Shown: positions 25,509 to 43,762, numbered from the stretch's first letter. The stretch: 64,000 nt of DNA from Kiritimatiellia bacterium (GCA_045656225.1 JAZOQU010000039.1:523-64522), one strand, 5' to 3'. Notes: generated by a model not told the origin, from the letters alone. Numbers and translations are program-made.

Positions 25509-25747
25509 CTTCGAAGATTGTACTCAGTCTATCCAATGTTGCATCTTTCGTGTAGAGCGCGATAGCGCTCGTTTTCGTGACCCCGTAGGGGTTTTGTGTC
25601 TGAGTTAAGTGACAAAACCCGATAGGGTGAAGAGGCGTTGGGCGCGGTGGCAACGCAAAGCGTTAAGCCACAAGCGCACAGCGACACTTCAATCGCACTT
25701 GCGCGATTTGTCACTAACTCAGTTTTAGTGGTCGCGCGTCAGCGCTC
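25509..25747 (+). repeat. structured repeat family N, copy N1 (candidate ncRNA)
   Basis: Three TTTCGTG boxes, each followed by a small hairpin, then a long closing stem CTGAGTTAAGTGACAAA/TTTGTCACTAACTCAG around internal hairpins. Paralogs at 28704-28878(-), 36244-36486(+) and 43540-43762(-). Confidence 0.7.
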
Positions 25748-25783
25748 TTCCCTCTTCCCACTTCCCATTCCCACCTTGTTTAC

Positions 25784-25801
25784 TTATCATAATTATGATA
25801 A
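25784..25801. promoter_or_regulatory. perfect 18-bp palindrome overlapping the phd-parE promoter (likely operator)
   Basis: TTATCATAATTATGATAA, overlapping a TAAAAT -10 candidate about 30 nt upstream of the antitoxin ATG. Confidence 0.5.
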
Positions 25802-25829
25802 AATCTTTGGTGTAAAAGATGGAGAAATT

Positions 25830-26114
25830 ATGTCAACATTATTAAAGGATGCCGATATTCGCCCTATTTCTGATCTTCGCAATCGATTTGCTGAAGTTTC
25901 AGATTATGTGCAAAGTGGAAAGACGATAATTTTCACGAAAAACGGCTATGGATGTATGGTTACAATGAGTTTCGATGCGTACAAGTCGCTTTCGGATCCA
26001 GCGTTAACTGAACTTAAACGAGTTGATGAATTGCTCGAAACCGACAATCGCCATTTTACACGCGAGGAGTCGCTAAATATACTTCGGGAGCGTGCAAATG
26101 CTCGGAGAAAATAA
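25830..26114 (+). CDS. Phd/YefM-family type II antitoxin
   Basis: GGAG RBS. MSTLLKDADIRPISDLRNRFAEVSDYVQSGKTIIFTKNGYGCMVTMSFDAY fits the Phd/YefM fold pattern. Overlaps the downstream toxin ORF. Confidence 0.75.
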   Translation: MSTLLKDADIRPISDLRNRFAEVSDYVQSGKTIIFTKNGYGCMVTMSFDAYKSLSDPALTELKRVDELLETDNRHFTREESLNILRERANARRK

Positions 26115-26412
26115 TTACACACTTGATATCCGACCTACATTCATTGACGAGCTTGACGCAACAGTTCGTTACATTGAGCAGGAATTACAGAATCCAATTG
26201 CGGCGGATAAATTGATCGAACAAACTTACGCGGCGATTGATGAAAGATTGTTTGCTCCTGAATCCTTTGAGCCGTGTTATCGTCCGCCAGATGTTAAACA
26301 ACCGTATTATAGGATTCATGTCGGGAATTTTGAGGTTTATTATATTGTTCGTGATAAAGTTATGGAAGTAAGATGGTTTCGCTATTCTAAAAGCGTTCAA
26401 CCTCTTACGTAA
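26092..26412 (+). CDS. RelE/ParE-family type II toxin
   Basis: 106 aa. C-terminal YYRIHVGNFEVYYIVRDKVMEVRWFRYS is typical of the RelE/ParE fold. 23-nt overlap with the antitoxin. Confidence 0.7.
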   Translation: MQMLGENNYTLDIRPTFIDELDATVRYIEQELQNPIAADKLIEQTYAAIDERLFAPESFEPCYRPPDVKQPYYRIHVGNFEVYYIVRDKVMEVRWFRYSKSVQPLT

Positions 26413-26572
26413 GTGTAGCATAAAATAAACGCGTAAAGTCTAGTCCTCTGCCAATCCTGTGCTAATGCTCTTGTAATACACTTCGTGATTGCTATGATTG
26501 GCTAAGTTAGTGCGCGTCAGTAATACCGTTCCGCAATTTAAGCGAATCGCAGAAATGAGATATAATAATCGT

Positions 26573-26701
26573 ATGAAAACAAATGCGCTTTTGTATGCAG
26601 ATGAAACTTACGAAATCAACCGTTGTATTTATGATATTCTGATAGCGAAGGTATGGTAGAAGATATTGAAACAGGCGATATTTCGCCTATTCAGTTGCAT
26701 T
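26573..26701 (+). repeat. roughly 125-bp direct repeat R125, copy 1 (contains a 28-codon mini-ORF, probable gene remnant)
   Basis: Near-identical to 30600-30723. The ATG..TAG mini-ORF (MKTNALLYADETYEINRCIYDILIAKVW) is frameshifted in copy 2. Confidence 0.8.
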
Positions 26702-26740
26702 AATATTTCTTTTATAGGTTTTGTAACTTTTTTGATTGTT

Positions 26741-27197
26741 TTGCTTGCTCCTGCGGAGCAGACGACTTATATCGATAATTTTTTACTGCGCCTTCGGCGC
26801 GACGACTTATATCGACTTTTATGTGCGCAGGCATTGTGCGGAAGGCTTTAATCTCGTGGCCGGACTTGTCGTCGCTTTTGCTCCGACGCCACGAGATTAA
26901 GCGCCTTATCCTTCCGCACAATGCCTGCGCATTTAGAAGTTAGTTATATTATTAATGAAGTGCATCGCTCGATCAGGAGGATAGGCACTTGCGTTGCGCC
27001 CGTCGCCGCAGGTGACAAGTCCGGGGCGCAACGGAAAGCCTACCGAGCGAGCGATGCACACAAAAGTCGTTCCAAGTCGTCGCGGCGAAGCCGCAGTAAT
27101 AAAAATAAATCTAACCGGCCACGAGATTAAAGCCTTCCTTCCAAGGCTTGCGCCAAAGTCGTTCCAAGTCGTCTGCCGCGTCAGCGGCAAGTAAAAA
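26741..27197. repeat. hairpin-mosaic element E1 (MITE/BIME-like)
   Basis: Terminal inverted modules TT(A/G)CTTGC-hairpin-AGACGACTTATATCGA (x2 at the left end) and AAAGTCGTTCCAAGTCGTC-hairpin-AAGTAAA (x2 at the right end). Long nested hairpins at 26821-26932 and 26979-27044. Confidence 0.8.
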
Positions 27198-27233
27198 CAA
27201 CTTCCTACTTCCCACGTCCTCCCAAAATCGCTA

Positions 27234-27263
27234 TTGCACCGAAAAACTCTAATGTGATATAAT
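27234..27263 (+). promoter_or_regulatory. sigma70-type promoter with extended -10 for the DUF3800 gene
   Basis: TTGCAC, 18 nt spacer, TGaTATAAT. Followed by a GC-rich leader of about 90 nt. Confidence 0.5.
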
Positions 27264-27360
27264 TTGAGGCGACGAAGGCTTAATAGGCTGGGGTCATCGA
27301 GACGCGGAGAAAGTTCTTCGCCTTGAGCGGCGGTGAAAACCGTCGCTCTTGCATTTTAAG

Positions 27361-28053: not shown

Positions 28054-28092
28054 GTATTTCGAGTCTTTTGTTTTCTAACTTTTTTTATTGTA

Positions 28093-28581
28093 TTTACTTG
28101 CGCCTTCGGCGCGACGACTTATATCGACTTTGACGAGCGGAGGAGGAAGGAAGGCTTTACGCCGATGCCCAGACATGTCGCGCAAGTGCGACGGCATCGT
28201 CGTAAGCGCCTTATCCTTCCTTCCTCCTCCGCTCGTTAGAGTATTAATCAAATGTCAATTATTTGTGATTGTGCGACGGATATGCGGATAAATGCGCCGA
28301 AGAGCGAAGCTCGAAGGGAGATACACCTGCACCGAAGGTGTCAGGTCGCCCGACGAGCAACGCGAGGAGCTTTGCGAAGCAAAGTCGCAAGAGGCTGTGC
28401 CGCGCAGACCGAAGGTCGAGCGCACGAGCGTAGCGAAGTGGCCGCAAGGCGCCGCGATCGGCGTTTAATCTCGTGGCGTCGGAGCGAAGCGACGACAAGT
28501 CCGGCCACGAGATTAAAGCCTTCCTTCCAAGGCTTGCGCCAAAGTCGTTCTAAGTCGTCTGCCGCGTCAGCGGCAAGTAAA
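28093..28581. repeat. hairpin-mosaic element E2
   Basis: Same end modules as E1. Forward hairpin 28132-28236 and reverse hairpin 28460-28520. Shares a core with E3 and E4 (GCGCCGAAGAGCGAAGCTCGAAGGGA...), here carrying an insert of about 80 nt. Confidence 0.8.
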
Positions 28582-28703
28582 TAACCTCTTCCCTCTTCCC
28601 ACTTCCCTCTTCCCTTCCAAAAAACCGCGCGAGGGGTGAAAATGCGGCGCTAGCGATGGAAAAGGATGAAGATAGTAATCTATTCGCGCTTCGCTTAGTG
28701 GCG

Positions 28704-28878
28704 GCTCCGCCGTGAGGTAGTGACAAATTGCGCAAGCGCGATTGAAGCGCTGCTGTGCGCTTGTGGCTTAACGCTTTGCGTTGCCACCGCGCCCATTGCC
28801 TCTTAACCCTATCGGGTTTTGTCACTTACCTCAGACACGAAACCCCTTCGGGGACACGAAAATTCACGAAAATGTGGG
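28704..28878 (-). repeat. structured repeat family N, copy N2 (5'-truncated)
   Basis: The reverse complement reads TTTTCGTGAATTTTCGTG-TCCCCGAAGGGG-TTTCGTGTCTGAGGTAAGTGACAAAACCCGATAGGG.... Its internal part is nearly identical to N1. Confidence 0.7.
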
Positions 28879-28986
28879 GGAATGGGGAACTGGGAAGAAA
28901 GACTAAAATATGAAGCGAGAAAAAGTGACTATAGATAGAGGAGATTGGTTGCATTTTTGTCTGAAAAAGCATATACTATTTCCGAC

Positions 28987-29604
28987 ATGAAAGAAAAGGA
29001 TTATTCGGAGAAAATTAGAGAGCGCGTCTCAAAGCTTAGAGATGGCGAACTTGTCGTTATGGTTGATTTTGCCGATATTGCTCCAAATAACACCGTCAAC
29101 AAAATTGTTACGAGACTTGTGGACGAGAATCTTTTGCGTCCTATTATCAGAGGAGTTTATCAAAAGCCGCTGATGAATTCATTTCTTGGCGAGCCAATAG
29201 AACCTACTGGCGAGGCTTTGGCGTTAGCAATAGCTCGAAAGAATGGATGGACGATATGTCCTAATGGAGATACCGCGCTTAATTTGCTTGGTCTTTCTAC
29301 TCAGGTTCCTGCGAATTGGAGTTTTCTTTCGAATGGTCCATATAAAGTATATAAGTTTAGCGGCGGTGAAATTCGCTTTTCTCATACGGCGAATAGATTA
29401 TTAGAGAGTTTATCAAAGGATTCAGTATTTCTAGTACAGGCATTGAGAGCTTTGGGTGAAGAGAGTACAGATGAAGAGACGCTTATGCGCCTATCTCACA
29501 ATATTTCACCTGAACGGATAAATCTAATTGAGGCCGAAACTAGGAATGTTCCAGATTGGATTCGGTCAAAAATTGCGAAATTAAAGGAGATTAAAAATGC
29601 GTAA
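28987..29604 (+). CDS. AbiEi-family (DUF6088-like) type IV antitoxin
   Basis: EKIRERVSKLRDGELVVMVDFADIAPNNTVNKIVTRLVDENLLRPIIRGVYQKP matches the AbiEi/DUF6088 N-terminal pattern. Overlaps the AbiEii gene by 8 nt. The ORF is open from a TTG at 28945. Confidence 0.7.
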   Translation: MKEKDYSEKIRERVSKLRDGELVVMVDFADIAPNNTVNKIVTRLVDENLLRPIIRGVYQKPLMNSFLGEPIEPTGEALALAIARKNGWTICPNGDTALNLLGLSTQVPANWSFLSNGPYKVYKFSGGEIRFSHTANRLLESLSKDSVFLVQALRALGEESTDEETLMRLSHNISPERINLIEAETRNVPDWIRSKIAKLKEIKNA

Positions 29605-30598
29605 TGTTGCAAGAGAAAGCGATGCCAATCTTTATGCGCTTTTTGCGAATACATCGGCTAAGAGTGGATTATCTCCTGCTGTTATAGAAAAGGACTTTTG
29701 GGTTTGTTGGCTACTTGATTACCTTTTCAGTAGATCGCCATGGAAAAATCAATTGGCGTTCAAAGGCGGTACTAGTCTCTCAAAGGCATTTGGTCTTATC
29801 AAACGCTTTTCCGAAGATGTTGACCTTATTCTTGACTGGCGGCTGCTCGGATATGAGAAAGATGAGCCTTGGCAGTCACGCAGCAATACTCAGCAAGACA
29901 TTTTTAATACGAAGGCGAATGAAAAAAGCGCCATATTCTTAAGAGATGTTTTTGCACCGAAACTCCGTGAAGATCTTGCGCGTGATCTTAATCATCCAGT
30001 TGATATCAATATAGACCCGGTAGATCCTAATACGGTTATATTTAATTATCCATGCGCATTTTCGGACGCGTCAATTCTTCGTGAAATACGTATTGAAAGT
30101 GGTAGCCTTGCCGCATGGACACCTGCGCGGCACAAGTCTATTTCACCTTATGCCGCTGAATATTATCCGCATATTTTTAAGCAGGCAGAAACATTGGTGT
30201 TTACGGTTGAGGCTGAACGGACATTTTGGGAGAAGGTTACAATTTTACATCGAGAGGCGATGCGTACAGAACGCCAAGGCCCGATGCCGCCACGTTATTC
30301 TCGGCATTATTATGACTTATGGAGTATGTGCCAAGGCGAAACTAAGGACGCTGCGCTTGCCAAGCTAAATCTTCTTGATGCGGTTGTTGAGTTTAAAAAG
30401 AAATTCTATCGTTGCGCATGGGCTAAGTACGAATTGGCGACTGCGAAGTCAATTTCGTTGATGCCGCCAGCTGCTGCAATCCCATCTTTAGAAGCGGACT
30501 ATCGTCACATGCGTAATATGATATTCGGTGAAACGCCACCATTTGAAGAGATGCTTGACTGTATAGCGAAGCTTGAAGATGAGATTCATAAGTGTTAA
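29597..30598 (+). CDS. AbiEii/AbiGii nucleotidyltransferase toxin (DUF1814)
   Basis: IEKDFWVCWLLDYLF...LAFKGGTSLSKAFGLIKRFSEDVDLIL is the hallmark N-terminal nucleotidyltransferase region. Confidence 0.8.
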   Translation: MRNVARESDANLYALFANTSAKSGLSPAVIEKDFWVCWLLDYLFSRSPWKNQLAFKGGTSLSKAFGLIKRFSEDVDLILDWRLLGYEKDEPWQSRSNTQQDIFNTKANEKSAIFLRDVFAPKLREDLARDLNHPVDINIDPVDPNTVIFNYPCAFSDASILREIRIESGSLAAWTPARHKSISPYAAEYYPHIFKQAETLVFTVEAERTFWEKVTILHREAMRTERQGPMPPRYSRHYYDLWSMCQGETKDAALAKLNLLDAVVEFKKKFYRCAWAKYELATAKSISLMPPAAAIPSLEADYRHMRNMIFGETPPFEEMLDCIAKLEDEIHKC

Positions 30599-30599
30599 T

Positions 30600-30723
30600 A
30601 TGAAAACTAATGCGCTTTTATTTAGCTCAGAAACTTACCAATCGTTGTATTTATGATATTCTGATAGCGAAGGTATGGTAGAAGATATTGAAACAGGCGA
30701 TATCTCGCCTATTCAGTTGCATT
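30600..30723 (+). repeat. direct repeat R125, copy 2
   Basis: Matches 26573-26701. It again sits immediately upstream of an E element. Confidence 0.8.
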
Positions 30724-30736: not shown

Positions 30737-31163
30737 TTTACTTGCTCCTTTGTTTTACTTGCTCCTGCGGAGCAGACGACTTATATCGACTTTGACGAGC
30801 GGAGGAGGAAGGAAGGCTTTACGCCGATGCCCGGATATGTCGCGCAAGCGCGACGGCATCGTCGTAAGCGCCTTATCCTTCCTTCCTCCTCCGCTCGTTA
30901 GAGTATTAATCAAATATCAATTATTTATGACTGTGCGACGGATATGCGGATAAATGCGCCGAAGAGCGAAGCTCGAAGGGAAGCCGCGCAGACCGAAGGT
31001 CGAGCGCACGAGCGTAGCGAAGTGGCCGCAAGGCGCCGCGATCGGCGTTTACGACGCGTCCGCCGCCGCAGGCGGCAAGTCTGGGACGCGGCGTAATGCC
31101 GACCGCATATCCGATGCACACAAAAGTCGTTCCAAGTCGTCTGCCGCGTCAGCGGCAAGTAAA
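30737..31163. repeat. hairpin-mosaic element E3
   Basis: End modules as in E1 and E2. Forward hairpin 30794-30898, nearly identical to the one in E2. Reverse hairpin 31044-31100. Long-range stem GTGCGACGGATATGCGG / CCGCATATCCGATGCAC. Confidence 0.8.
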
Positions 31164-31337
31164 ATAAAAAAACCGCGCGAGGGGTAAAAATGCCGCGGTA
31201 GCGATGGGAAAGGGAGAGAAAATAAAAAAAATTAAAAAATATTTTTAAGGGGGTTAAAAGTGCGTTTCACCCCTATTTTTATTGGGTGAGATGGCGATTA
31301 GGGTCTAAGTTCGAAGCAGAAGGGGAGTATACCCCAC

Positions 31338-31367: not shown

Positions 31368-31516
31368 ATAGGTGCTTGGGCGGATAGTCGAAACTCGCGG
31401 TGAGTTTCATCTACCTTGGCGAAAATCGGAACGACGATGAGTTGGCGATCTGGGTATCGTAAATGAATCTGAGTTCTAAACCTAATCGGGCTGGGCCCCG
31501 AGAAAGTGAAAAAGAA

Positions 31517-32287
31517 ATGAAGAAACTTATGTTTGCAGCTACGGCCGCCGTCTGTGCCGCAGTAACGTTCGGATTGGAGTCCGCTAATATTGTAGGTTAT
31601 AGTCAGTCGGATGTTCGTTTGAATTTGTCACAGCAGATGCCGACCTTCGCTAATGTTGGTCAGACTTCTGTTGACATTCAGTCGATGATCCCTGTTGATG
31701 CTGATGGCGAAGTTCTTGACTATGAGTTCACCATTCAGGAAATTTCAGACCTTGGCAAGGTTATCAAGGTGTACGACTACATTCTCGCTGACTCTTCTGA
31801 CGATGGCGAAATGGAAGGCTGGTTGACCTATAATGAAGACGGTGAGCAGGAAGTTGTTGAGCGTAAGTTCGATATTGGCGAGGGCTTCTTGGTTCTTGCT
31901 ACCGCAGCTGGTAAGATGAGTTACTGTGGTGAGGTAGTTATGGGCGAGATTTGTGTTCCTGTTCGTAAGAACCTTTCTGCTCAGGGCAATATCCGTCCTA
32001 TGCCGGTTGATATTCAGACCTTGATTCCCGTTGATGCTGACGGTGAAGTTCTTGACTATGAATTCACCATTCAGGAGACAACTGACCTTGGCAAGGTTAT
32101 CAAGGTGTACGACTACATTCTCGCTGACTCTTCTGACGATGGCGAAATGGAAGGTTGGTTGACCTATAATGAAGATGGCGAGCAGGAAGTCGTTTCTCGC
32201 ACATTTAATGCTGGCGAGGGCTTCTTGATTCTTTCTACGGCTGATGAAGGGTTTCTTAAGTTCCCCGCTATTCAAACCAACAACTAA
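31517..32287 (+). CDS. cassette A gene 1: secreted protein with two tandem repeat domains of about 112 aa
   Basis: Signal peptide MKKLMFAATAAVCAAVTFG, then LESANIVGY. Internal 336-bp tandem duplication (about 31670-31905 and 32006-32241). The ORF is open from 31463. Confidence 0.75.
   Translation: MKKLMFAATAAVCAAVTFGLESANIVGYSQSDVRLNLSQQMPTFANVGQTSVDIQSMIPVDADGEVLDYEFTIQEISDLGKVIKVYDYILADSSDDGEMEGWLTYNEDGEQEVVERKFDIGEGFLVLATAAGKMSYCGEVVMGEICVPVRKNLSAQGNIRPMPVDIQTLIPVDADGEVLDYEFTIQETTDLGKVIKVYDYILADSSDDGEMEGWLTYNEDGEQEVVSRTFNAGEGFLILSTADEGFLKFPAIQTNN
31552..31600. repeat. inverted repeat IR-a, left copy (inside the gene 1 5' coding region)
   Basis: CTGTGCCGCAGTAACGTTCGGATTGGAGTCCGC (33 nt) is a perfect reverse-complement match to 41009-41041. 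Over the full repeat the match is 46/49. Confidence 0.9.
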
Positions 32288-32340
32288 TTTACTACACAGC
32301 ATAGTGTTGTGTGGATAAAACAAAAAAAAGGAAAAATAAA

Positions 32341-32895
32341 ATGAAAAAAATCATGGTAGCAGCAGCAGCGATTGCTATGGCGGTAGTTGCTAATGCGTCA
32401 TCTGTTATCTGGACATGTTCGAACGTGTTCCTCGGCAATGAAACCGACAAGTGCTCGGGTATTGCTTACTTCGTAAATGCAGACTTAATCAGCTCCACTG
32501 CCCTCAAGGCTCTTGGAGACGATGGTGCCGCTGCAATTACAACTGCTCTCGGCAGTTCGTATAGCTTCACCCCTGCCTCCGCTGGTTCTTATGTTAAGAC
32601 AGCTGCTAACGCAGTTTCAGTAGGCACGTTGGGTCTCGCTGATACAACAGCTTACACTGGTTACCTCGTAATCTTCGATGGTGCTACCATCGCTGATTCT
32701 ACGAAGTTCTACACTACTCAGGAGATGGATTTCACCACTCTTGCTGGTGATAACGCCGTTCAGGTTAAGTTCGGTTCTCAGAAGGTCAACTCGACCGACG
32801 CTGGTAATTGGACTGCTGTTGCTCCGGAGCCGACCTCTGGTCTCCTCCTCCTCATTGGCGTTGCTGGCCTCGCTCTCCGTCGCCGTCGCGCCTAA
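32341..32895 (+). CDS. cassette A gene 2: PEP-CTERM sorting-domain protein
   Basis: Signal peptide MKKIMVAAAAIAMAVVANA. C-terminus VAPEPTSGLLLLIGVAGLALRRRRA (PEP motif, TM helix, Arg cluster). Confidence 0.85.
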   Translation: MKKIMVAAAAIAMAVVANASSVIWTCSNVFLGNETDKCSGIAYFVNADLISSTALKALGDDGAAAITTALGSSYSFTPASAGSYVKTAANAVSVGTLGLADTTAYTGYLVIFDGATIADSTKFYTTQEMDFTTLAGDNAVQVKFGSQKVNSTDAGNWTAVAPEPTSGLLLLIGVAGLALRRRRA

Positions 32896-33027
32896 TTGGT
32901 TAGGAGTTAGTAGTTAGGAGTCAGGAGTTAGTAATAAGGAAGTTAAAATTCCATTGTTCAACTTGAACTTCGACTTCGACTCTAACTTAACAAAACGGTA
33001 AGCCCGTCCGATTATTCGGGCGGGCTT
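32821..33027. repeat. inverted repeat IR-b, left copy (PEP-CTERM coding end plus 3' UTR and terminator)
   Basis: Reverse complement of 39576-39781, with about 9 mismatches and 1 indel over about 207 bp by hand count. Includes the terminator hairpin AAGCCCGTCCG-ATTATT-CGGGCGGGCTT. Confidence 0.9.
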
Positions 33028-33048
33028 CAAAATTTTAAGGAGATTATT

Positions 33049-35488: not shown

Positions 35489-35581
35489 GGGGCGGTAGAA
35501 GGTTTTAGGTGAAGGTTAGAGGTGAAGGTGAACAGCGGAATTTGAGATTTTCCCTCTTCCCACTTCCTTTAGTAGTTCTTC

Positions 35582-36243: not shown

Positions 36244-36486
36244 CTTCGTCAGAATGTACTCAGTGTCTCCAGTGTTGTGCTTTTCGTGTAGCCTCCGAAG
36301 GAGGCGTTTTTGTGTCCCACGAATGTGGGCTTTCGTGTTTGGGAGCGCGGCAAAAGCCGTAGGCTTTAGACGAGACGATGCGCTATGGGTGACGCGTTAA
36401 GCGACAAACCCAATAGCGCATTGGCGAGTCGTTAATCGCGTTAACGATTTGCCGCGCTCACAACTTTCGTGGTCGCGCGGAGCGCC
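36244..36486 (+). repeat. structured repeat family N, copy N3
   Basis: TTTTCGTGTAG-CCTCCGAAGGAGG-CGTTTTTGTG-TCCCACGAATGTGGG-CTTTCGTGTTTGG, then the closing stem GAGCGCGGCAAA/TTTGCCGCGCTC. The architecture is the same as N1 but the stem sequences differ. Confidence 0.7.
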
Positions 36487-36503
36487 ACACTAATCACTAA
36501 TGA

Positions 36504-37301
36504 TTATTCTAGCCCTACCGTCTTAATTCCTAAATTTCTAAGCTCTTCGTTGCGGCGTTCCCAGACGTCCATGAAGTCGTCTTCGTTAAGCGATTCTTTA
36601 GCCTTTTCAATTTCTGACTTTATCCTCTCGTAGATTGCGATTTCTGCGTCTTGGCGTTCTGTTAGGCGCTTACCATAGTCGACGATTGTGCCGCCCGCTG
36701 CGATATATTGCCGCGCTTCGTCTTTCATTCCCTCGACCATCGCTTTAATTTGACGCGCTTCAGGCGAATCGGCAGGGAGGATCTCGCACTTTGAATTTAT
36801 CGCAGCTTCAAATTCTTTAAGCGAAGTGTTGCGCTGACCAGCCTTAACGCCAGGAATCGCGAAGCTCGCTAAGAACCTATCTCCTTCGAGCGCGAAGACA
36901 TCTGCCCACCCAGTGCGAATACCCTTAGCTACGATCGCTTCATCACCGAAAACTTGGCGGCGGGTTTTATCGACATTCGCCAAGTTCGCATAGGGATTAC
37001 TCTCAGCCTTACCTAATGATTCTTTGGCGCTCTCAGGCACGTTGTTTACCGCGCTCTTGCTTCCGCTAAAGTAGGCTGCAACACCTACGCCAAGTGCAAC
37101 AGACGCCACAAGAGCCACAACACCGCGCTTTCTAAGGCCGCGAACCTCTCCGTTAGCTTTAGAGCCGTCAGCAGCGACAACTTTAATCGCTTTTATGCCG
37201 CGTTTACGCAATTCAGCGAACACCTCTTCTCTCGAAGAGGCGTTCATTGTATCTTCATGACGTATTCCGTCACTCGACTTATATGCGTAAGTATATTTCA
37301 T
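36504..37301 (-). CDS. cassette B gene 5 (paralog of 34697..35488)
   Basis: MKYTYAYKSSDGIRHEDTMNASSREEVFAELRKRGIKAIKVVAADGSKANGEVRG.... High identity to the A copy at both termini. Confidence 0.75.
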   Translation of the reverse strand: MKYTYAYKSSDGIRHEDTMNASSREEVFAELRKRGIKAIKVVAADGSKANGEVRGLRKRGVVALVASVALGVGVAAYFSGSKSAVNNVPESAKESLGKAESNPYANLANVDKTRRQVFGDEAIVAKGIRTGWADVFALEGDRFLASFAIPGVKAGQRNTSLKEFEAAINSKCEILPADSPEARQIKAMVEGMKDEARQYIAAGGTIVDYGKRLTERQDAEIAIYERIKSEIEKAKESLNEDDFMDVWERRNEELRNLGIKTVGLE

Positions 37302-38149
37302 CGACCTTTCTTAGGATCGAACTGAATTTTCATTGGATTTTTGGGGGCGGCGCGGACTTCGTCCCAAACAGCCTTTTGGTACTCGTTCGTTGGCTGGGGC
37401 GCCCAGCCTTCCATGACTGCGAGTTTATAGGGGATATGACGCGCTCTTTTAACGCCGAACTTAGCCATTTGAGCGTACATCTTTTGGAAGTTCATAGGCT
37501 GCATAACTTGATAAACGAGCGCGTCGAGTTCCTTAAGATTATAAACTGGCTGAAGTACATCGTTCTTATAGGGCGCGTAACCGATACCGCCTACAAAGCC
37601 AAGCGCTCTCCAAACTTCCTTAATAAGTCTCGTCTCTGGCGCGAGAGGATCATTGCCGCCGAGATAACGCTTAGCATTGATAACTGCGATACGCTCCTCT
37701 GGCATTACGCAAAGACCAGGGCAATCGCCAGATTCAGCGATGAGAATCACATACGCGGCATTATTAGCCTTAAGCGCGGCGAGCGCTTTGGCGTATGGCT
37801 TTTCGTTCGCGTTAAGCTTTGACTTATCAATCTTAATATTCGTCTTAGATAAATCGCCGAATACTTCGGCGAAGCGATCTGCCGCGATGCCGGGCTTTTC
37901 GCGTGTATCAACTACGACTACGCTTACGCCAACTGCCGCGACATCGAGAAAGCCGCCTGTCTTTTTAAGGACTGCCGGGCGATTTTCAAGTTCAGCGCGA
38001 GTTTGCTTTTTATCAGCCTTTTTCTGACCTTCAGCCGCCTTTAGAGCTGCTGCTTCAGCCATCTTTTTAATTTGGTCTTCTTGGGCGTTATTAGCGAGAA
38101 TGGGAGCCGTGATAAGAAGCGCGGCGATTATACTTAGAGTAGCTTTCAT
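37298..38149 (-). CDS. cassette B gene 4 (paralog of 33870..34700)
   Basis: Signal peptide MKATLSIIAALLITAPILA. Conserved C-terminus EGWAPQPTNEYQKAVWDEVRAAPKNPMKIQFDPKKGR. Confidence 0.75.
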   Translation of the reverse strand: MKATLSIIAALLITAPILANNAQEDQIKKMAEAAALKAAEGQKKADKKQTRAELENRPAVLKKTGGFLDVAAVGVSVVVVDTREKPGIAADRFAEVFGDLSKTNIKIDKSKLNANEKPYAKALAALKANNAAYVILIAESGDCPGLCVMPEERIAVINAKRYLGGNDPLAPETRLIKEVWRALGFVGGIGYAPYKNDVLQPVYNLKELDALVYQVMQPMNFQKMYAQMAKFGVKRARHIPYKLAVMEGWAPQPTNEYQKAVWDEVRAAPKNPMKIQFDPKKGR

Positions 38150-38166
38150 ATTGTGAACCTTAATCC

Positions 38167-39057
38167 TTAATTGGAGTCTTTATGAGCGTCAATAATATCG
38201 TTAATGTGTTTAGGAATTTTAGCGTCAGGTAAGCCTAATTCTCTAAACTTTTGATTTAAAGTATCGCGATAGAGCGCGGCGGATTTAGCGTCACCTTTTT
38301 TGAGAAATCCTACAATATCCTTTAAGGTTGACGCGGTTAAGCCCTTTTGAATGGTAGCGGTTTGGCGCATTTCCATTACAAATTCATCGAAGCTCGCGCC
38401 AGTAGTTTCCATATAATCAAGCGCGAGTTCCTTAACTTCAGCGGCGGCTGTCTTTTTGCGGATGACTTCTTCGCTGTCATCGGGGTTAATTGTAACAGGT
38501 TTACGAAGCATTTTCATAACCTCAGCTTTATCTAAGCCCATAAGCATACCAGGGATAAACGATCCGTTTTGAAGATTCATGCCAATAAGATTCTCTTCAA
38601 AGGCGTTGTCGAATACAGGCTTAGGAGTAATATCTACCCAATTACCCTCATGATCACATTTATACACAGCGCCATGAGAGTGTACAGTTCTAAATTCACC
38701 GGGAGCAGGAACGGGGAAGGTTAAAACGCGACCATCGGGCGTTTGCATTGTGCCAGGCTTTTTAACGAATGGGGGCTTTTCCTTTTTTTGCGCGGCAAGG
38801 GGCTTCTCGGTCTTTTTAACGAGATTGGTCGAGGTCTTAGGCGTGGGAACGCGCTTTTTAGGGGTGTCGGTTTGCGCAATGGGCGCGGATTCGGGCTTAG
38901 AGAGGAAGAAATAAAGCACGATGCCGCCAAATAACGCGATAAGGGCGCAGATAGCGTATGGTACAACGCGCAGCTTGCGCGTTGACTTAGGAGTATCATT
39001 TTTCTTGAACGAGCTAGCAGCTCGTTCTACTACTTTATCTGATCCATTCCAACCCAT
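38167..39057 (-). CDS. cassette B gene 3: N-terminally membrane-anchored protein
   Basis: Starts MGWNGS..., with the TM helix VVPYAICALIALFGGIVLYFFL. Same position and topology as 33049..33873 but highly diverged. Confidence 0.7.
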   Translation of the reverse strand: MGWNGSDKVVERAASSFKKNDTPKSTRKLRVVPYAICALIALFGGIVLYFFLSKPESAPIAQTDTPKKRVPTPKTSTNLVKKTEKPLAAQKKEKPPFVKKPGTMQTPDGRVLTFPVPAPGEFRTVHSHGAVYKCDHEGNWVDITPKPVFDNAFEENLIGMNLQNGSFIPGMLMGLDKAEVMKMLRKPVTINPDDSEEVIRKKTAAAEVKELALDYMETTGASFDEFVMEMRQTATIQKGLTASTLKDIVGFLKKGDAKSAALYRDTLNQKFRELGLPDAKIPKHINDIIDAHKDSN

Positions 39058-39076
39058 AAGTTTTCTTTCTGTTTAT

Positions 39077-39563
39077 TTTTACTTGCCGCGTTCCGCGGCA
39101 GACGACTTAGATCGACTTTTATATGCTCCGGACGTACGGTAGGCTTTCCGTTGCGCCCCGGACTTGTCGCCTGCGGCGACGGGCGCAACGCAAACGCCTA
39201 TCCTCCCGTCCGTCCGTCGCATAAAGGAGTTAATTATTACACCTGCGCATGACTTGGAAGGAGATGCGCCGAAGAGCGAAGCTCGAAGGGAAGCCGCGCA
39301 GACCGAAGGTCGAGCGCACGAGCGTAGCGAAGTGGCCGCAAGGCGCCGCGATAAGGCGCTTAATCTCGTGGCGTCGGAGCGAAGCGACGACAAGTCCGGC
39401 CACGAGATTAAAGCCTTCCTTCCAAGGCTTGCGCTAAAGTCGTTCCAAGTCGTCTGCACCGCAGGAGCAAGTAAATCAAAACTAACCAACCACGAGCTTA
39501 AAGCTTCCTTACAAGGCTTGCGCCAAAGTCGTTCCAAGTCGTCGCGCCGTAGGCGCAGTAAAA
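39077..39563. repeat. hairpin-mosaic element E4 (insertion relative to cassette A)
   Basis: Same end modules as E1-E3 (two at the right end). Forward hairpin 39123-39222 and reverse hairpin 39354-39415. It occupies the gene 2 - gene 3 spacer, which in cassette A (33028-33048) is only about 20 bp. Confidence 0.8.
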
Positions 39564-39575
39564 CTTAAAGTTAGA

Positions 39576-39781
39576 AAGCCCGCCCGAATAATCGGACGGG
39601 CTTACCGTTTTGTTTAGTTAGAGTCGAAGTCGAAGTTGAAGTCGAACAATGGAATTTAACTTCCTTATTACTAACTCCTGACTCCTAACTACTAACTCCT
39701 AACCTATTAGGCGCGGCGGCGACGGAGAGCGAGGCCAGCAACGCCAAGGAGGAGGAGAAGACCAGAGGTCGGCTCCGGAGC
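39576..39781. repeat. inverted repeat IR-b, right copy
   Basis: See 32821-33027. Confidence 0.9.
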
Positions 39782-40228
39782 AACCTCGAAGCTGTTGTTC
39801 GCGAGGTTGGTAGCCTGATTGCCGAAACCGAAGGTCTTGGACTGCGAGTCGTTCTCCATCATGATGGAAGCGACAGACGTGACCGAAGCAGAGGTGCCAT
39901 CAGCGCCCCAGATAACGGCGAAAGCCTGATAGGTGTCCGTACCGCTGCCGCTGTAAGTGATAGTCTTGCCAGAGGTAGCAGCAGAGGCATTAGCCATACC
40001 GGTATTGCCAACCGTACCATTTGCGAACGCATAGGCAGAAGTGTCAGTACCAGCAGCAACGAGAGCGGTGATCTGATCAACAGATGTAACACCGTTCTGA
40101 CCGATTACGTAAACAGAGTAATCGCTGTTTTTGTAAGCGGTAGCACCCATCATCGACCAACCGACAGCAGCCGCGTTAGCCATCGCAGCCATCGCAACGG
40201 CGGCTACGAGAATCATGATTTTCTTCAT
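39707..40228 (-). CDS. cassette B gene 2: PEP-CTERM sorting-domain protein
   Basis: MKKIMILVAAVAMAAMANA signal peptide. C-terminus VAPEPTSGLLLLLGVAGLALRRRRA. The ORF is open from 40306. Confidence 0.85.
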   Translation of the reverse strand: MKKIMILVAAVAMAAMANAAAVGWSMMGATAYKNSDYSVYVIGQNGVTSVDQITALVAAGTDTSAYAFANGTVGNTGMANASAATSGKTITYSGSGTDTYQAFAVIWGADGTSASVTSVASIMMENDSQSKTFGFGNQATNLANNSFEVAPEPTSGLLLLLGVAGLALRRRRA

Positions 40229-40293
40229 TTTTTGTTTTCCTTTTTTTTGTTTTAGGCACGTTACACCATGCAACGCACGTAAATTGTTTTGAC

Positions 40294-41019
40294 TTAATAG
40301 GGGCAAGCAATCTCAATGTTGAACGTAAGGCTGTTCATATTATCGATAGCGAAGCCAGCACCAGGTTCGATTGTAACATTAACGGGAGTACCCATTTCAT
40401 CGCCCCAGAAGTTACCAGCCTCTTCACCAGCAGGATTCATCGACTTGTCAAAGTAGAAATAAATCGTTTCAGCGCTGCCGAGAGGACCAACAATCTGCAT
40501 CGTATCGCCCCAGCCAACAGTAGGCATTTCGCCAGTAGGCGTACCATCGTTGAGCTGAATAGCATTGATATTAATGGCAGCAGGGAAGGGGTTGCCCGTC
40601 CAATTGAAGTTAGCGCGAGCAGGGATGGAAACCTTGGCAGTAGGAACTTCACCTGCAGTGCGGATCTTGAACTCAAGACCGTTCATGTTATCAATCGCAA
40701 TACCATCGCCGGAATCGAACGAAACAGCAACAGGCGTACCCATTTCGTCGCCCCAGAAGTTACCAGCCTCTTCACCAGCAGGATTCATCGACTTGTCAAA
40801 GTAGAAGTAAATCGTTTCAGCACTGCCGAGAGGTCCAACGATCTGCATCGTGTCGCCCCAACCAACTGTAGGCATTTCGCCAACAGGAGTGCCGTCATCA
40901 AGCTGAATGGCGTTTATGTCGGTGGTATTAGCACCAGCCGTGACGAACATAGGAGCATACCAGTTAAAGTTAGCACGCGCATCCGTGTTATTATACCCAA
41001 CAATATTCGCGGACTCCAA
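40294..41019 (-). CDS. cassette B gene 1: 5'-truncated (no ATG, no signal peptide) tandem-repeat protein, candidate silent cassette
   Basis: Begins at ..LESANIVGY, where only a TTG is available. Homology to the cassette A gene starts exactly at IR-a. Two repeats of about 115 aa share a near-identical 50-aa core (DNA 40729-40878 and 40381-40530). Confidence 0.6.
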   Translation of the reverse strand: MESANIVGYNNTDARANFNWYAPMFVTAGANTTDINAIQLDDGTPVGEMPTVGWGDTMQIVGPLGSAETIYFYFDKSMNPAGEEAGNFWGDEMGTPVAVSFDSGDGIAIDNMNGLEFKIRTAGEVPTAKVSIPARANFNWTGNPFPAAININAIQLNDGTPTGEMPTVGWGDTMQIVGPLGSAETIYFYFDKSMNPAGEEAGNFWGDEMGTPVNVTIEPGAGFAIDNMNSLTFNIEIACPY

Positions 41020-41041
41020 TCCGAACGTTACTGCGGCACAG
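40993..41041. repeat. inverted repeat IR-a, right copy
   Basis: See 31552-31600. The outer boundary lies inside the palindrome GTTACTG-CGGCA-CAGTAAC (41027-41045). Confidence 0.9.
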
Positions 41042-41124
41042 TAACATTTATTTACATTATTCTACGAGCGAATGAATGCAGAATACAGTAATAAAATGTA
41101 AAATAGAGGGCAAAAAGGAGAAAT

Positions 41125-41991
41125 ATGACACCGACTATTGCGCAAGTAATAAAATGCTACAAAATAATCGCTGATATTGAGCGGGCGAAGACTGGGCGGC
41201 CTGGGGAAGGGACGAAGAAAAATGTCTTGAGAGGTACGGTTGCTGTTTGTAATGCTGCCGGGATAGCGTTGAGCGATAGTGTTGAGGTGTTGACGCGAAG
41301 GGCGATAGATAGGGCGCTAGCTGATTTTATGGTTCGGGGAATGACGCGGCTTTCGGCGTGGAGCTATATTTGTAAATTAAGGGGGCTTTTCGCTAAATGG
41401 TGTCTGCCATATTATAAGGACGCTGGGTGGGAAATACCGAAGTTGGAGTTGCCGGTGTTTCGAGCGCAGGCGCCGCGTTATATTAGACCGTCGAGCGAGT
41501 TGTTGGCAAGGGTTAAAAACTGGTACAGGTTGCAGAAGGGCGAGTATTGGTTCGCGGCGACGATGATGCTCGAGTTCGCTATGAGAAATGGAGATGTATT
41601 AAGGCTTACGGATTCTAATTTTGTTGAGAATGATAATGGTAAGTTTTTGTCGTATACGCCGCATAAAACTGAACTTACGTCTGCGCGGCGGGTTTATTGG
41701 CCGATCCATCCAGAGATATGGCAGAAGTTCGAGGATTATGGGCGATTAGCGGGACTGGATGTTACGAATGAGACATTCGAGGACATAAATCGCGATTTAC
41801 GGAATCTTGGATTTCACGGCTCAAAGGCAGCGTATGAATTGCGCAAGATTTGTATCGACCATATCTATCAGAAGTTTGGTGCAGAAATGGCAGTATCTAT
41901 CTCAGGTGATGACATCCGCACCATTACGAAATATTACGCCGACCCCGCCCAACCGAATATCGGAGCGGTTAGGGTCTTGGATTTGCTTTAA
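41125..41991 (+). CDS. tyrosine recombinase-like protein (divergent family member)
   Basis: 288 aa. Box I-like MRNGDVLRL. The segment HKTELTSARRVYWPIHPE resembles the Lys-containing beta-hairpin. Box II-like AYELRKICIDH, with Tyr in place of the first His. C-terminal ISGDDIRTITKYY provides a candidate nucleophile Tyr. It is divergently oriented, 84 bp from IR-a. Confidence 0.55.
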   Translation: MTPTIAQVIKCYKIIADIERAKTGRPGEGTKKNVLRGTVAVCNAAGIALSDSVEVLTRRAIDRALADFMVRGMTRLSAWSYICKLRGLFAKWCLPYYKDAGWEIPKLELPVFRAQAPRYIRPSSELLARVKNWYRLQKGEYWFAATMMLEFAMRNGDVLRLTDSNFVENDNGKFLSYTPHKTELTSARRVYWPIHPEIWQKFEDYGRLAGLDVTNETFEDINRDLRNLGFHGSKAAYELRKICIDHIYQKFGAEMAVSISGDDIRTITKYYADPAQPNIGAVRVLDLL

Positions 41992-42181
41992 CCCCTGTCA
42001 AACACTTTCTCGCTATTATTTTCAACTCACGCTAACTGCTACCCGCTAACTGTCAAAAGCTAATTATGATATAATATCCGCATATAAATTAATAGCAATG
42101 GGGCCTGTCCCCCTCAGATTTTGCTGTAAGGCTACGCTCGACAGGTTCTTGAAGGGTAGTTGGGCGGCATCGAGGAATAAT

Positions 42182-42379
42182 ATGGTTCCTATGGAGTCGT
42201 TTGTTAAGAGGACGATAGGCGATTCAGCAAGGGTAATGGAGGCGGTCTTTGATGAGGAGCGTACGACCGATGAGCTTATAGACGCTATCGCTGATTTGGC
42301 AGCGGGCTTAAATCCTATCGTCAGAGACGCAAGACGAGTAAGCGAGAACCTGGAGAAGGAGGATGAGGACGAGGATTAA
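42182..42379 (+). CDS. hypothetical small acidic protein
   Basis: Short ORF, open from 42098, with the acidic tail EKEDEDED. A TGATATAAT -10 candidate lies near 42066. No family recognised. Confidence 0.3.
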   Translation: MVPMESFVKRTIGDSARVMEAVFDEERTTDELIDAIADLAAGLNPIVRDARRVSENLEKEDEDED

Positions 42380-43071
42380 GGAAGCTGCTTGTTATTGAGG
42401 AACTTAAGCTCGTTATGTTTGAATGCTCTTGCACCACCGAAGAACCTATGTTCGCTTTCGGAAAGCTTCTCACCAGTTTCGAGCTTAAGTTTTACCAGAG
42501 TAAGAGTGCAGATTAAATCAGCAAGCTGGAATAATTTGTAATTTCGAGGAAGGACGCCCTGTGCGAAATCCACGGGGCAGCCGATGTCTGAAAAATATTT
42601 ATGAAGGAGATTTGTAATCGGCGCTTGACCGCAGTCGTAGTACACCTTAACCTTGCCAAGTCTTGAAAGCATGTCTTTATGATTGATTATAAAATCATTA
42701 AGTTGTGTTCCAAGACGTGAGACAATCTGAAGAGTAGAACTGATATATTTCTTATCAACGCTTAAACAATGATAGCGAAAATTCATCTTTCTGGCAAAAC
42801 TAAGCATTCTTGCGTAGATTTTCCCTCGCATGTGTCTTGAGAAGTATTCATAACCCTTTTCGCGACGAATGAGAGGCCCAGCATGAAAAATGAATGTGTC
42901 TTTATCTATACCAATTGACTCAAGAGACTGTTCGTAGTCGGCAATCAACTTGGATATGTCGATAGACTGGTCATGAAAAATCATGCCTAAAATATAAAAG
43001 CGAGAATCTTTGTCTGGATACTGAAAGCATCCAGATTCATCCACAAATATACTTAAAACATTATTATTCAT
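42376..43071 (-). CDS. DUF3800 domain protein (paralog 2)
   Basis: MNNNVLSIFVDESGCF.... Paralogous along its whole length to 27361..28053. The ORF is open from 43125. Confidence 0.7.
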   Translation of the reverse strand: MNNNVLSIFVDESGCFQYPDKDSRFYILGMIFHDQSIDISKLIADYEQSLESIGIDKDTFIFHAGPLIRREKGYEYFSRHMRGKIYARMLSFARKMNFRYHCLSVDKKYISSTLQIVSRLGTQLNDFIINHKDMLSRLGKVKVYYDCGQAPITNLLHKYFSDIGCPVDFAQGVLPRNYKLFQLADLICTLTLVKLKLETGEKLSESEHRFFGGARAFKHNELKFLNNKQLP

Positions 43072-43539
43072 TCTTAAAAAAACGAAAGTGACGAGAATTA
43101 CTTCCCGCCACTCACACGGGGACATTTCCCCGCATCAAGGTGATCCCTTCCTTGGGGATGAGACCACGTATATTTTAGCATAAGGAAATTGTAGCCGCAA
43201 GTGCCAATTTAGCATATTCGTTTTATGGTATTAGTTTGCGGGGATTTGACCACATTGGTGGGGGCAGACTGGTGGGGTGAATATTTTTATGCTATTGGAG
43301 TTACGCAAGGAACTTGGTATTAACAGTGCAAATTATTACATCGCAATATTTGACTCCAATGAAAAGAGAAGGATATATTGAAATTGAAAAAGGGGTTAAT
43401 ATGTGTAATTCGCGCGTAGACCCTCGGATTCAGTTGTGGGGGAATGGGGTTAGAGGCCGCTCCGCGGCGGTACACTAAGCGAGGCGAAGCCGAGGTAGCC
43501 AAGGCCGAAGGCCGCAGCCCCGAAGGGGTGCTCCAAGCA

Positions 43540-43762
43540 GCCGCAAAACTGAGTCGGTGACGAATCGTGCATTCGCACGATTGAATCGTCGCTGTCCGCC
43601 CTCATTTTGAGGCTTTGCCTCAGAGGTGCGTCCATCTCCGATTCACCCTATCGGGTTTCGTCACTCGCCTCAGACACGAAAGCCCTACGGGACACGAAAG
43701 CGTCTCCTTCGGAGACTTACACGAAAATGCAACATTTGAGAAGCTTTGTACAATCTACGAAG
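43540..43762 (-). repeat. structured repeat family N, copy N4
   Basis: The reverse complement reads CTTCGTAGATTGTAC...TTTTCGTGTAAG-TCTCCGAAGGAGA-CGCTTTCGTG-TCCCGTAGGGC-TTTCGTGTCTGAGGCGAGTGACGAAACCCGATAGGGTG.... Confidence 0.7.

Follow-up and report, generated by a model that had tools for sequence, protein, structure and literature searches.

N elements of gut Kiritimatiellae: a candidate modular structured repeat family whose arrays flank GxxExxY nuclease genes

Introduction

In Proteobacteria, REP/BIME repeats occur with a RAYT (TnpA-REP) gene, and Streptococcus pneumoniae carries the pneumococcal BOX elements, built as boxA-(boxB)n-boxC, for which we know of no associated nuclease gene. 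Structured elements near DUF3800 genes, in either orientation, have been described as DUF3800-associated RNA motifs I-XI (Weinberg et al. 2017, PMC5737381). Here, we discuss the N elements in a 64,000-nt stretch of DNA from a Kiritimatiellia bacterium (GCA_045656225.1 JAZOQU010000039.1:523-64522; hereafter, the window), for which an earlier note had proposed four copies of a novel ncRNA. Our best explanation, held with about even confidence, is that N is a lineage-specific, multi-copy, modular structured repeat family carried by ruminant-gut Kiritimatiellae and related bacteria of the gut, similar to REP/BIME and BOX elements and with a different partner enzyme.

Members and modular anatomy

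The window contains six members rather than four, all within a 19-kb low-GC accessory island (25.1-44.4 kb) downstream of tsf, as gene-less singletons or pairs. N1 to N4 were confirmed at the positions and strands first reported, and N0 and N0' are additional. N4, previously ended at 43540, runs 3' to about 43440, and N2, described as 5'-truncated, does lack the leader and hairpin 1 but retains box 1. The members and the two pair-centre modules are as follows.

25105..25356, minus strand: N0, extra member back-to-back with N1, its leader found by nhmmer and a leader regular expression; leader 25340-25356, a single box-like site, G+C-rich multi-hairpin core 25187-25315, and a trailer at 25105-25203 that has a terminator-like end (basis: repeats D10 and I4 span trailer and core)
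25371..25421, plus strand: central module of the divergent N0/N1 pair, with two overlapping sigma-70-like promoter matches directed at N1 (TTGACT-18-TACAAT and TTTACA-17-TATGAT, 10 of 12 each)
25509..25747, plus strand: N1; leader 25509-25545, box 1 25546-25552, hairpin 1 25556-25569, box 2 25573-25579, hairpin 2 25580-25592, box 3 25592-25598, core a type A four-way junction with closing-stem arms 25600-25616 and 25707-25722, box 4 25724-25730, hairpin 4 25734-25745
28619..28878, minus strand: N2; box 1, AAT, box 2, hairpin 2 28843-28853, box 3, type A core 28713-28834, hairpin 4 28700-28711 with no box 4 ahead of it, trailer and terminator-like end 28619-28703 (basis: repeats I2, D10 and D12 among others)
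36244..36497, plus strand: N3, flanked by convergent genes and in the middle of a large inverted duplication; leader, four boxes, hairpin 1 36291-36305, hairpin 2 36316-36329, core a type B four-way junction with closing-stem arms 36341-36354 and 36448-36461, hairpin 4 36475-36485
43440..43762, minus strand: N4; leader, boxes 1-3, hairpin 1 43702-43716, hairpin 2 43683-43691, type A core 43549-43673, then variant box TTTTGCG, a G+C-rich multi-hairpin module, box TTAGTGT, hairpin 4 43456-43470 and a pyrimidine tract
43885..43934, minus strand: central module of the N4/N0' pair, homologous to 25357-25448 (repeat I16), with the same two promoter-like matches as the N0/N1 module (9 of 12 each) directed at N4
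44146..44331, plus strand: N0', extra member; alternative leader 44146-44186 (also present in locus L003), box CTTTCGTGG 44187-44195, and G+C-rich multi-hairpin core 44203-44331, 97% identical, inverted, to the N0 core 25187-25315 (repeat I4)

Each N is an array that starts with a 45-nt leader and continues with repeated units of a TTTYGTG box and a stem-loop module, one module usually being a large four-way junction of 124-129 nt, with an optional trailer at the end. The order of leader, boxes, hairpins and closing stem agreed with the first description; its three TTTCGTG-type boxes are real, but a fourth, TTT(C/A)GTG, and a hairpin follow the closing stem. In the window, TTTCGTGT occurs eight times against 2.2 expected, with 8/8 occurrences inside N copies, and the 20-mer GTGACAAAACCCGATAGGGT occurs three times against 0 expected. 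Box spacing is irregular, from 3 to about 200 nt, and the gaps hold palindromes that change in sequence while keeping their pairing. As read from the sequences, G-N-A triloops and G-N-N-A tetraloops with a C-G closing pair predominate among the loops, rather than the UUCG and GNRA types that had been named alongside GAA. As a stable hairpin motif, the G-N-A triloop with a C-G closing pair is classic for DNA and not typical of RNA.

Modules are exchanged, duplicated or lost by recombination, with breakpoints exactly at boxes. Among 30 copies tabulated from about 15 loci, a TTTYGTG box stands 5' of every module, the number of boxes per copy ranges from 1 to 5, and the types of hairpin 1, hairpin 2, closing stem, core and hairpin 4 are reassorted. 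Junctions in strain variants fall at boxes (e.g., 25579 fused to either 25748 or 31168), comparison of loci L031 and L032 reveals a precise loss of the core together with one box, and minimal members, such as that in L010, are without any core.

Folding and covariation

Against dinucleotide shuffles, the copies fold much more stably, with z-scores of −5.2 for N1, −5.1 for N3, and −4.9 for N4. The type A core comprises 44 pairs (97.9% paired), 14 of which show compensatory changes, and its covariation score was reached by 0 of 500 shuffles; the type B core comprises 48 pairs, 9 of them compensatory, with G-U pairs conserved. These changes bear out the covarying conserved structure first claimed. 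However, much of the covariation consists of whole-hairpin block swaps, with very few one-sided intermediates in type A, and for this reason it is a weaker sign of step-by-step selection. The four-way junction is retained in loci L031, L051, and L067 despite unrelated stem sequences. Core length is 124-129 nt in type A and type B alike, and its preservation, with that of the four-way architecture, across very different sequences seems tighter than a merely selfish repeat would require.

The sense (TTTYGTG) strand was the more stable one in 18/18 copies, by a mean of 10.8 kcal/mol, and in most copies its G-U pairs outnumber those of the other strand by a factor of roughly two to three. A search of the window and 18 related loci with Rfam 15 at gathering thresholds gave 0 matches, and E-value mode gave nothing on any N copy, in line with the earlier view that N belongs to no named RNA family. 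Of the novel-ncRNA proposal, the conserved, strand-specific structure stands; the elements are multi-copy modular repeats, not a four-copy gene with a fixed three-hairpin layout.

Genomic setting and the GxxExxY nuclease gene

In pattern scans, N was found only in Kiritimatiellae MAGs and gut metagenomes, and viral contigs gave chance matches only. N members lie at junctions of accessory cassettes in variable islands, typically as inverted pairs; their confinement to islands refers to about 340 kb of sampled loci. N was present in 0/8 tsf contigs without the island, and two contigs with an island at the same spot (L022 and L026) have three copies each. The adjoining cassettes carry toxin-antitoxin, abortive-infection and other accessory genes (Phd/ParE, AbiE, Zeta, NYN, DUF3990, HipBA, and Fic). 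Copies occur in either orientation relative to their neighbours and often in divergent (inverted) pairs. DNA contigs are 5-40 times deeper over N than over the flanking genes, and therefore the family is multi-copy; MAG contigs also break at N. Pfam searches of the tested neighbours revealed no transposase family; TnpA, TnpB, IscB, and IS110 recombinase were likewise missing there and from the gene calls of 40 loci, and the HEARO and IS605-orfB Rfam models gave no match. As no clean pair of empty and filled sites with a target duplication was found, we infer the mobility of N from its distribution and mosaicism.

The filled form of the inverted pair bears a small GxxExxY nuclease gene between the arrays. 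In 9/9 independent neighbourhoods, a GxxExxY PD-(D/E)XK nuclease gene lies between two N-like arrays, the upstream one 16-110 nt ahead of the gene start and the downstream one, in the sense direction, beginning 12-100 nt past the stop codon. The 126-aa protein (PF13366, TIGR04256) has a P-D...E-x-K catalytic motif that is invariant in 26 homologues, and is predicted to adopt a fold like that of Cas4 and lambda-exonuclease-type nucleases. Of the 413 close homologues, most lie on contigs about 1 kb long, which would be the expected outcome of assembly breaking at repeats on both sides. No such arrays were found with GxxExxY genes on Treponema, Bacteroides, and Fusobacteria plasmids, so the nuclease link is clade-specific. 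The window itself contains no GxxExxY gene. The distances reported for N1 to phd-parE (83 nt) and N4 to the DUF3800 gene (469 nt), as well as the adjoining pyrimidine tracts, were correct; the tight gene link is with GxxExxY nuclease genes, not with phd-parE or DUF3800.

We tentatively propose, at well below even confidence, that N arrays and the GxxExxY PD-(D/E)XK nuclease form an undescribed partnership in gut Kiritimatiellae and related bacteria. The pair may represent a small mobile or domesticated element of a new class, analogous to REP-RAYT but with a different enzyme fold, or the nuclease may use or process the flanking four-way-junction RNA or single-stranded DNA as a substrate, scaffold or guide. 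If either version is true, arrays without a gene would seed accessory and defence cassettes and reshuffle them.

Transcription

Transcription of N is indicated by unstranded metatranscriptome contigs with modest depth per copy. The X17 metatranscriptome has an expression-like pattern (chaperone and ribosomal genes high, metabolic genes zero), and its depth over N is 17-240, from unstranded contigs without end information. One X17 RNA contig begins at about 25395, in the N0/N1 central module, and this pair-centre promoter module is conserved in four other loci (L022, L014, L007, and L009).

What N is

In our preferred explanation, the repeat family would spread and reshuffle as DNA, with the nuclease gene mobilising N or homing into it. 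Where transcribed from a pair-centre promoter or by read-through, arrays would fold as RNA and would act at most in cis, as transcript ends or insulators, and N would comprise no dedicated trans-acting RNA gene. The acting form may be RNA or single-stranded DNA. The conserved G-U pairs and the promoter- and terminator-like flanks of some copies fit a functional RNA and count against a repeat family, as do the constrained cores, the block-swap nature of much of the covariation, the clade-specific nuclease link and the window's lack of a GxxExxY gene. A functional structured RNA, such as a scaffold, guide, substrate or antitoxin-like regulator of the GxxExxY nuclease or other island genes, is possible, although we consider it unlikely; its single-stranded UUUYGUG boxes would be protein-binding or base-pairing sites between hairpins. 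It would agree with the strand-specific fold, the type B G-U pairs, and the four-way junction kept in divergent members at a steady core length, as well as with the conserved sigma-70-like promoter 105-140 nt upstream of N1 and N4, the terminator-like trailer ends of N0 and N2, the sense array after the GxxExxY stop codon, and the presence of N in three or four metatranscriptomes. However, RNA depth per copy is modest after allowing for the 5-40-fold DNA copy number, and the RNA contigs reveal neither strand nor ends. Many copies, including N0, N2, N3, and the arrays upstream of GxxExxY, have no same-strand promoter or are directed at convergent genes. A range of 1-5 modules, with minimal members lacking cores, and the DNA-type triloops also speak against such an RNA.

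It appears rather improbable that N is only a cis-acting, non-mobile transcript boundary, i.e., a leaky terminator, RNA stabiliser or insulator between cassettes. A UUU(U)YGUG follows each hairpin, hairpins 1 and 2 were flagged as terminator-like by a scan, copies lie between cassettes and after stop codons (e.g., N3 and the arrays downstream of GxxExxY), and one X17 RNA contig joins a short N variant to phd-parE, all as a boundary would have it. Nevertheless, the box U tracts comprise only 3-5 U, compared with 7-9 in clear terminators of the same DNA (e.g., those following tsf and the DUF3800 small RNA), and about 40% of N copies are not co-oriented with any neighbouring gene; a boundary role also leaves the 45-nt leader, the four-way junction, the inverted pairing and the nuclease association unexplained. 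Each end has a single short motif in three to five direct copies, and the ends form inverted pairs around cargo; this recalls double-stranded DNA binding sites (iterons or Tn7-/Mu-like transposase sites) with incidental hairpins, an alternative that the earlier note had also raised. Such sites would need no pairing within a strand, and both strands should then behave alike. We regard this as very improbable, given that only the TTTYGTG strand folds well, with G-T pairs, in all 18 copies, that the irregular box spacing is filled by covarying palindromes, and that Pfam revealed no transposase family in the neighbours tested.

Comparison with known systems

N resembles the DUF3800-associated RNA motifs in that the window has two DUF3800 genes 0.4-1.6 kb from N copies. 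A tblastn search of 14 other N loci with both window DUF3800 proteins gave 0 homologues; in L028-L030, the DUF3800b cassette is present without N and bears its own small RNA, and no N copy scores with the DUF3800 Rfam models. We rejected this assignment because DUF3800 proximity is not consistent. Like integron attC sites, N elements are strand-specific folded sites at cassette boundaries, with structure conserved more than sequence and a variable centre, and accompany toxin-antitoxin and small accessory cassettes. Unlike attC, N has no R''/R' boxes (RYYYAAC/GTTRRRY), its stems are perfect with no extrahelical bases, and it combines several hairpins and direct repeats in mixed orientations, whereas attC forms one imperfect hairpin in uniform orientation. 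The integrase IntI was not found; the only recombinase was a generic 681-aa tyrosine recombinase in L022. An attC identity was rejected, as the core sites, hairpin type, uniform orientation and IntI are all missing. IS200/IS605 ends, TnpB/IscB omega RNA and IS110 bridge RNA were rejected because the partner genes were not found in the neighbours tested or in the gene calls of the 40 loci.

N can also be likened to neisserial mosaic elements. BOX elements and N share conserved ends around internal modules that vary in number (in N, a leader, 1-5 units and a trailer); both are intergenic, multi-copy and highly structured, and both are transcribed along with their neighbours. This likeness is architectural only, since the phyla differ and sequence homology is not expected; unlike those of BOX, N modules have a 7-nt box between them and mutually different sequences.

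Both REP/BIME and N are multi-copy, extragenic palindromic units in which a short conserved motif precedes each hairpin on its 5' side (GTAG in REP, TTTYGTG in N). The partner of N is a PD-(D/E)XK GxxExxY protein instead of the Y1 HUH transposase (RAYT) of REP, and no Y1 transposase was found in any N neighbour tested. N differs further in the direct orientation of its units, its four-way-junction module of about 125 nt and its 45-nt leader, and its copies have so far been found in accessory islands, whereas REP/BIME occur throughout the core genome. Both are clustered into mosaic arrays, both have a nuclease-type gene between inverted repeat copies, and both form strand-specific hairpins, which can act in DNA and RNA in REP/BIME and may do so in N.

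Results

All four copies (N1–N4) of a repeat that an earlier note had put forward as a candidate novel structured RNA were found where reported and could be aligned with one another over about 240 nt. With two further members, N0 and N0', the window holds six, all within a low-GC, repeat-rich region at about 25.1–44.4 kb between tsf and a sulfatase gene. The motif TTTCGTGT was present eight times in the 64-kb window, where 2.2 occurrences were expected, with all eight inside N copies, and a 20-nt core motif occurred three times against 0 expected. N1, N3, and N4 folded 24–25 kcal/mol better than their dinucleotide shuffles (z = −5.2, −5.1, and −4.9, respectively).

Members of the N family and a separate RNA candidate in the window
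25105-25356, minus: N0, left edge; G+C-rich multi-hairpin core at 25187-25315
25509-25747, plus: N1, left edge, type A core; forms a divergent leader-to-leader pair with N0
28704-28878, minus: N2, type A core
36244-36486, plus: N3, type B core
43076-43166, minus: separate small hairpin RNA candidate, upstream of the DUF3800 gene at 42376-43071
43540-43762, minus: N4, right edge, type A core
44146-44331, plus: N0', right edge; G+C-rich multi-hairpin core at 44203-44331; forms with N4 the mirror image of the N0/N1 pair

We worked out the anatomy of N from about 30 copies, including loci on other contigs (L001–L067; suffixes denote individual copies). N is an array, in which a conserved 45-nt leader (CTTCG-n-AGAWTGTAC-N13-TGTTGCA) comes first and is followed by one to five units, each consisting of a TTTYGTG box and one stem-loop module; some copies carry a trailer (CTAAGCGAAGCGC...) whose end is formed by a hairpin plus a run of T. 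The elements are usually arranged as box, hairpin 1 (19–20 nt), box, hairpin 2 (10–17 nt), box, large core, box, and hairpin 4, giving four boxes rather than the three originally counted. The minimal member (L010) consists of the leader, one box, and hairpin 4, whereas N2, L001m, and L011m are without hairpin 1, N4 and L007m contain two tandem cores, L012 is shortened by an internal deletion, and insertions are present in L002p and L009m1. At least four kinds of core were seen, including a type C core in L003, L009, and L022c, and hairpin 1, hairpin 2, closing stem, core, and hairpin 4 types occurred in many combinations. In strain variants, among both DNA and RNA contigs, different modules were joined precisely at a box, and L032 differed from L031 by the precise loss of the core and one box. 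The boxes are thus recombination junctions, at which exchange may be caused by slippage, homologous exchange, or an enzyme.

Homologues and base pairs were assessed using nhmmer, RNAalifold, and pair counting. The type A core (11 copies) had 44 consensus pairs with 97.9% of all cells paired, and 14 pairs showed compensatory double changes; none of 500 shuffles matched the observed covariation score, and sliding the register by 1–3 columns lowered pairing to about 30%. The type B core (11 copies) had 48 pairs, of which nine were compensatory, and several conserved G-U pairs. Both types are four-way junctions of 124–129 nt with almost no unpaired linkers, whose arms are the closing stem (in which type A has a conserved bulged A), a 4-bp G..A-loop hairpin, a long hairpin, and an AATCG/CGATT hairpin. 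The distant members L031, L051, and L067 kept the same four-way architecture with unrelated stem sequences, whereas L041 and L061 did not keep it. Variation in type A was nearly all double change, often affecting whole hairpins at once, and the covariation therefore partly reflects block swaps.

In each of 18 copies, the TTTYGTG strand was more stable than the complementary strand (mean gain, 10.8 kcal/mol), which rules out a reading of the boxes as purely double-stranded protein-binding iterons. G-U pairs were also commoner on this strand in most copies. Most loops are G-N-A or G-N-N-A on a closing C-G pair, which is the classic motif of stable DNA mini-hairpins, whereas the conserved G-U pairs lean toward RNA. 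The copies and their conserved fold were confirmed and extended, but their identity as a noncoding RNA was supported only in part.

DNA contig depth on N3 and N4 was 5–40 times that of adjoining unique genes. In the metatranscriptome X17, depth was 34–217 on DnaK, GroEL, rpsB, and tsf and about 0 on intervening metabolic genes, so X17 looks like RNA and not DNA carry-over. X17 depth over N1, N3, and N4 was 17–240, which is modest per copy, on contigs that are unstranded and lack defined ends; N4 was also present in two other metatranscriptomes (X24 and X29). One X17 contig begins at about 25395, the predicted −10 of a promoter in the central module that is conserved among N pairs and carries two sigma-70-like matches aimed at one partner. 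Another X17 contig contains a short N variant fused directly to phd-parE. Separately, 43235-43422 had very high X17 depth (300–900) and is probably another repeated, highly expressed segment, because its contigs continue into unrelated sequence.

Several other identities for N were considered. No named RNA family fits, and the earlier note had recognized none: Rfam 15 gave no match in the whole window at gathering thresholds and none to N in E-value mode over 25.0–44.5 kb. N4 lies near a DUF3800 gene, but an RNA specific to DUF3800 was rejected: the 14 other N loci searched have no DUF3800 homologue, and the DUF3800b cassette travels without N, the exact protein occurring in L028–L030, where N is absent and the shared DNA begins only at about 43231. 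The hairpin RNA candidate at 43076-43166, which is equipped with a promoter-like site of its own and a strong terminator and is identical or nearly so in L028–L030, overlaps a weak Rfam match to DUF3800-XI (19 bits against a threshold of 37.8). N1 lies just upstream of phd-parE, but it is not the 5' leader of this operon, which has its own promoter-like site and operator palindrome between N1 and the gene and is preceded by a much shorter N in strain variants. The palindrome, a perfect 18-bp TTATCATAATTATGATAA at 25784-25801, overlaps the promoter-like site immediately upstream of phd and probably serves as operator of the toxin-antitoxin pair.

The genes and motifs that define integron attC, IS605/TnpB, IscB, or IS110 RNAs were absent. 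The complement of AGAWTGTAC resembles a −10 element (TACAAT, TACATT, TATGAT), but an antisense promoter in the leader was rejected since it lacks a good −35 and was unflagged by the scan; by eye, the leader gave no convincing match to sigma-54, ECF, or Bacteroidetes-type promoters. A plasmid-borne element was dismissed because N1 had no meaningful match in PLSDB, and a phage element because two scans of viral contigs gave only a tandem iteron and a chance match in a coding region. The box-pattern scan (one genome per species) returned only ruminant-gut Kiritimatiellae MAGs and one chance match, and the leader-pattern scan of metagenomes added eight N loci. Window DNA was present in bovine and other gut metagenomes; the window Phd and sulfatase had no exact protein on record.

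N is closely associated with a nuclease gene rather than with phd-parE or DUF3800. In four N loci found by pattern (L001, L004, L011, and L022), a 125–126-aa GxxExxY gene (PF13366, TIGR04256) lies between N copies. Starting instead from the protein, we obtained 413 homologues with E-values of 1e-10 or better, the best 120 of which were at least 60% identical and mostly on contigs of ~1 kb; five homologue clusters with longer contigs, representing five different neighborhoods, were examined, and N-like box-plus-hairpin arrays stood on both sides of the gene in all five. Overall, the gene was bracketed by such arrays in 9/9 neighborhoods. The arrays were inverted in 7/9, with box 1 beside the gene and the 3' ends outward, and direct in L022 and L067; the downstream array begins 12–100 nt past the stop codon, and the upstream one ends 16–110 nt short of the start codon. 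In the protein, a P-D...E-x-K motif is invariant and the structure is confidently predicted (pLDDT 94), with weak to moderate best matches (TM-scores, 0.4–0.6) to Cas4 SSO0001, lambda-exonuclease-like enzymes, tRNA-splicing endonucleases, and an archaeal Holliday-junction resolvase. A universal link was rejected: on plasmids of Treponema, Bacteroides, and Fusobacteria, distant GxxExxY genes are tightly packed between other genes and lack such arrays, and the link is therefore clade-specific. Either the nuclease could mobilize N, or its gene could home into N pairs.

In the window, the outer cores of the two edge pairs were 97% identical. Divergent N pairs also occurred in L001, L002, L007, L008, L009, L012, L014, and L022. 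The exact Tsf protein was found on many contigs; in eight of the ten listed, tsf is followed directly by an acyl-CoA synthetase gene, and these contigs (about 130 kb) contain no N. L022 and L026 carry at the tsf site an island with three N copies, the GxxExxY gene, and a 681-aa tyrosine recombinase, L009 carries a third variant with an NYN gene, and the island in the window carries phd-parE and DUF3800. The site downstream of tsf (24995-25105; L009, L018–L027) is a hotspot, in that the same Tsf is found with the island absent or its cargo differing. Similarity between island-free contigs and the window ceases at the tsf stop codon, which leaves no readable insertion junction. Elsewhere, N neighbors include Zeta toxin, AbiEi, DUF4143 ATPase, DUF3990, a polyvalent-protein kinase, HipBA, and Fic; orientation relative to neighboring genes is mixed, and N2 and N3 face convergent or opposite genes.

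The island also contains a second repeat family of about 400–490 bp (26779-27196, 28093-28583, 30749-31164, and 39073-39563), which looks like a MITE. One end consists of ATTTACTTGC, a variable hairpin, and GACGACTTATATCGACTTT, and the other of AAAGTCGTTCYAAGTCGTC, a variable hairpin, and GCAAGTAAAT; long purine/pyrimidine hairpins within the family (28133-28236 and 30795-30898) gave spurious miRNA-like Rfam matches. This family flanks DUF6088 and AbiEii nucleotidyltransferase genes (28945-30598), a type IV toxin-antitoxin or abortive-infection pair. Pyrimidine tracts CTCTTCCCTCTTCCCACTTCCC lie in direct orientation at cassette borders (25745-25766, 27199-27220, 28586-28607, and 35547-35568), and several strain-variant joints are located within or next to these tracts. 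A large inverted duplication (31463-35488 versus 36504-41019) with N3 at its center holds a set of genes without assigned function, including PEP-CTERM proteins; in L028, repeated 219-aa and 186-aa PEP-CTERM gene pairs beside a 362-aa tyrosine recombinase point to a variable, shufflon-like locus.

Discussion

The best-supported reading is that N is a modular structured repeat family, REP/BIME- or BOX-like, by which islands of accessory genes are marked and reshuffled and whose partner is a PD-(D/E)XK nuclease gene. This reading points to a way in which small toxin-antitoxin and defense cassettes could be swapped at a chromosomal hotspot. GxxExxY proteins are widespread, and we know of no function for them; N offers a concrete, testable pairing of such a protein with a structured repeat. 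For RNA discovery, the family is a caution that block-swapped modular hairpins can yield strong z-scores and covariation, and its repeats break metagenome assemblies of rumen Kiritimatiellae. The fold of N may work at the level of single-stranded DNA, for propagation, or of RNA, at transcript ends or as a partner of the nuclease; it may also do both, as REP elements are known to do. Much work has been done on interspersed structured repeats in Proteobacteria and Firmicutes, but, to our knowledge, they are hardly described in Kiritimatiellae or their relatives, among which N would be the first repeat family to be dissected.
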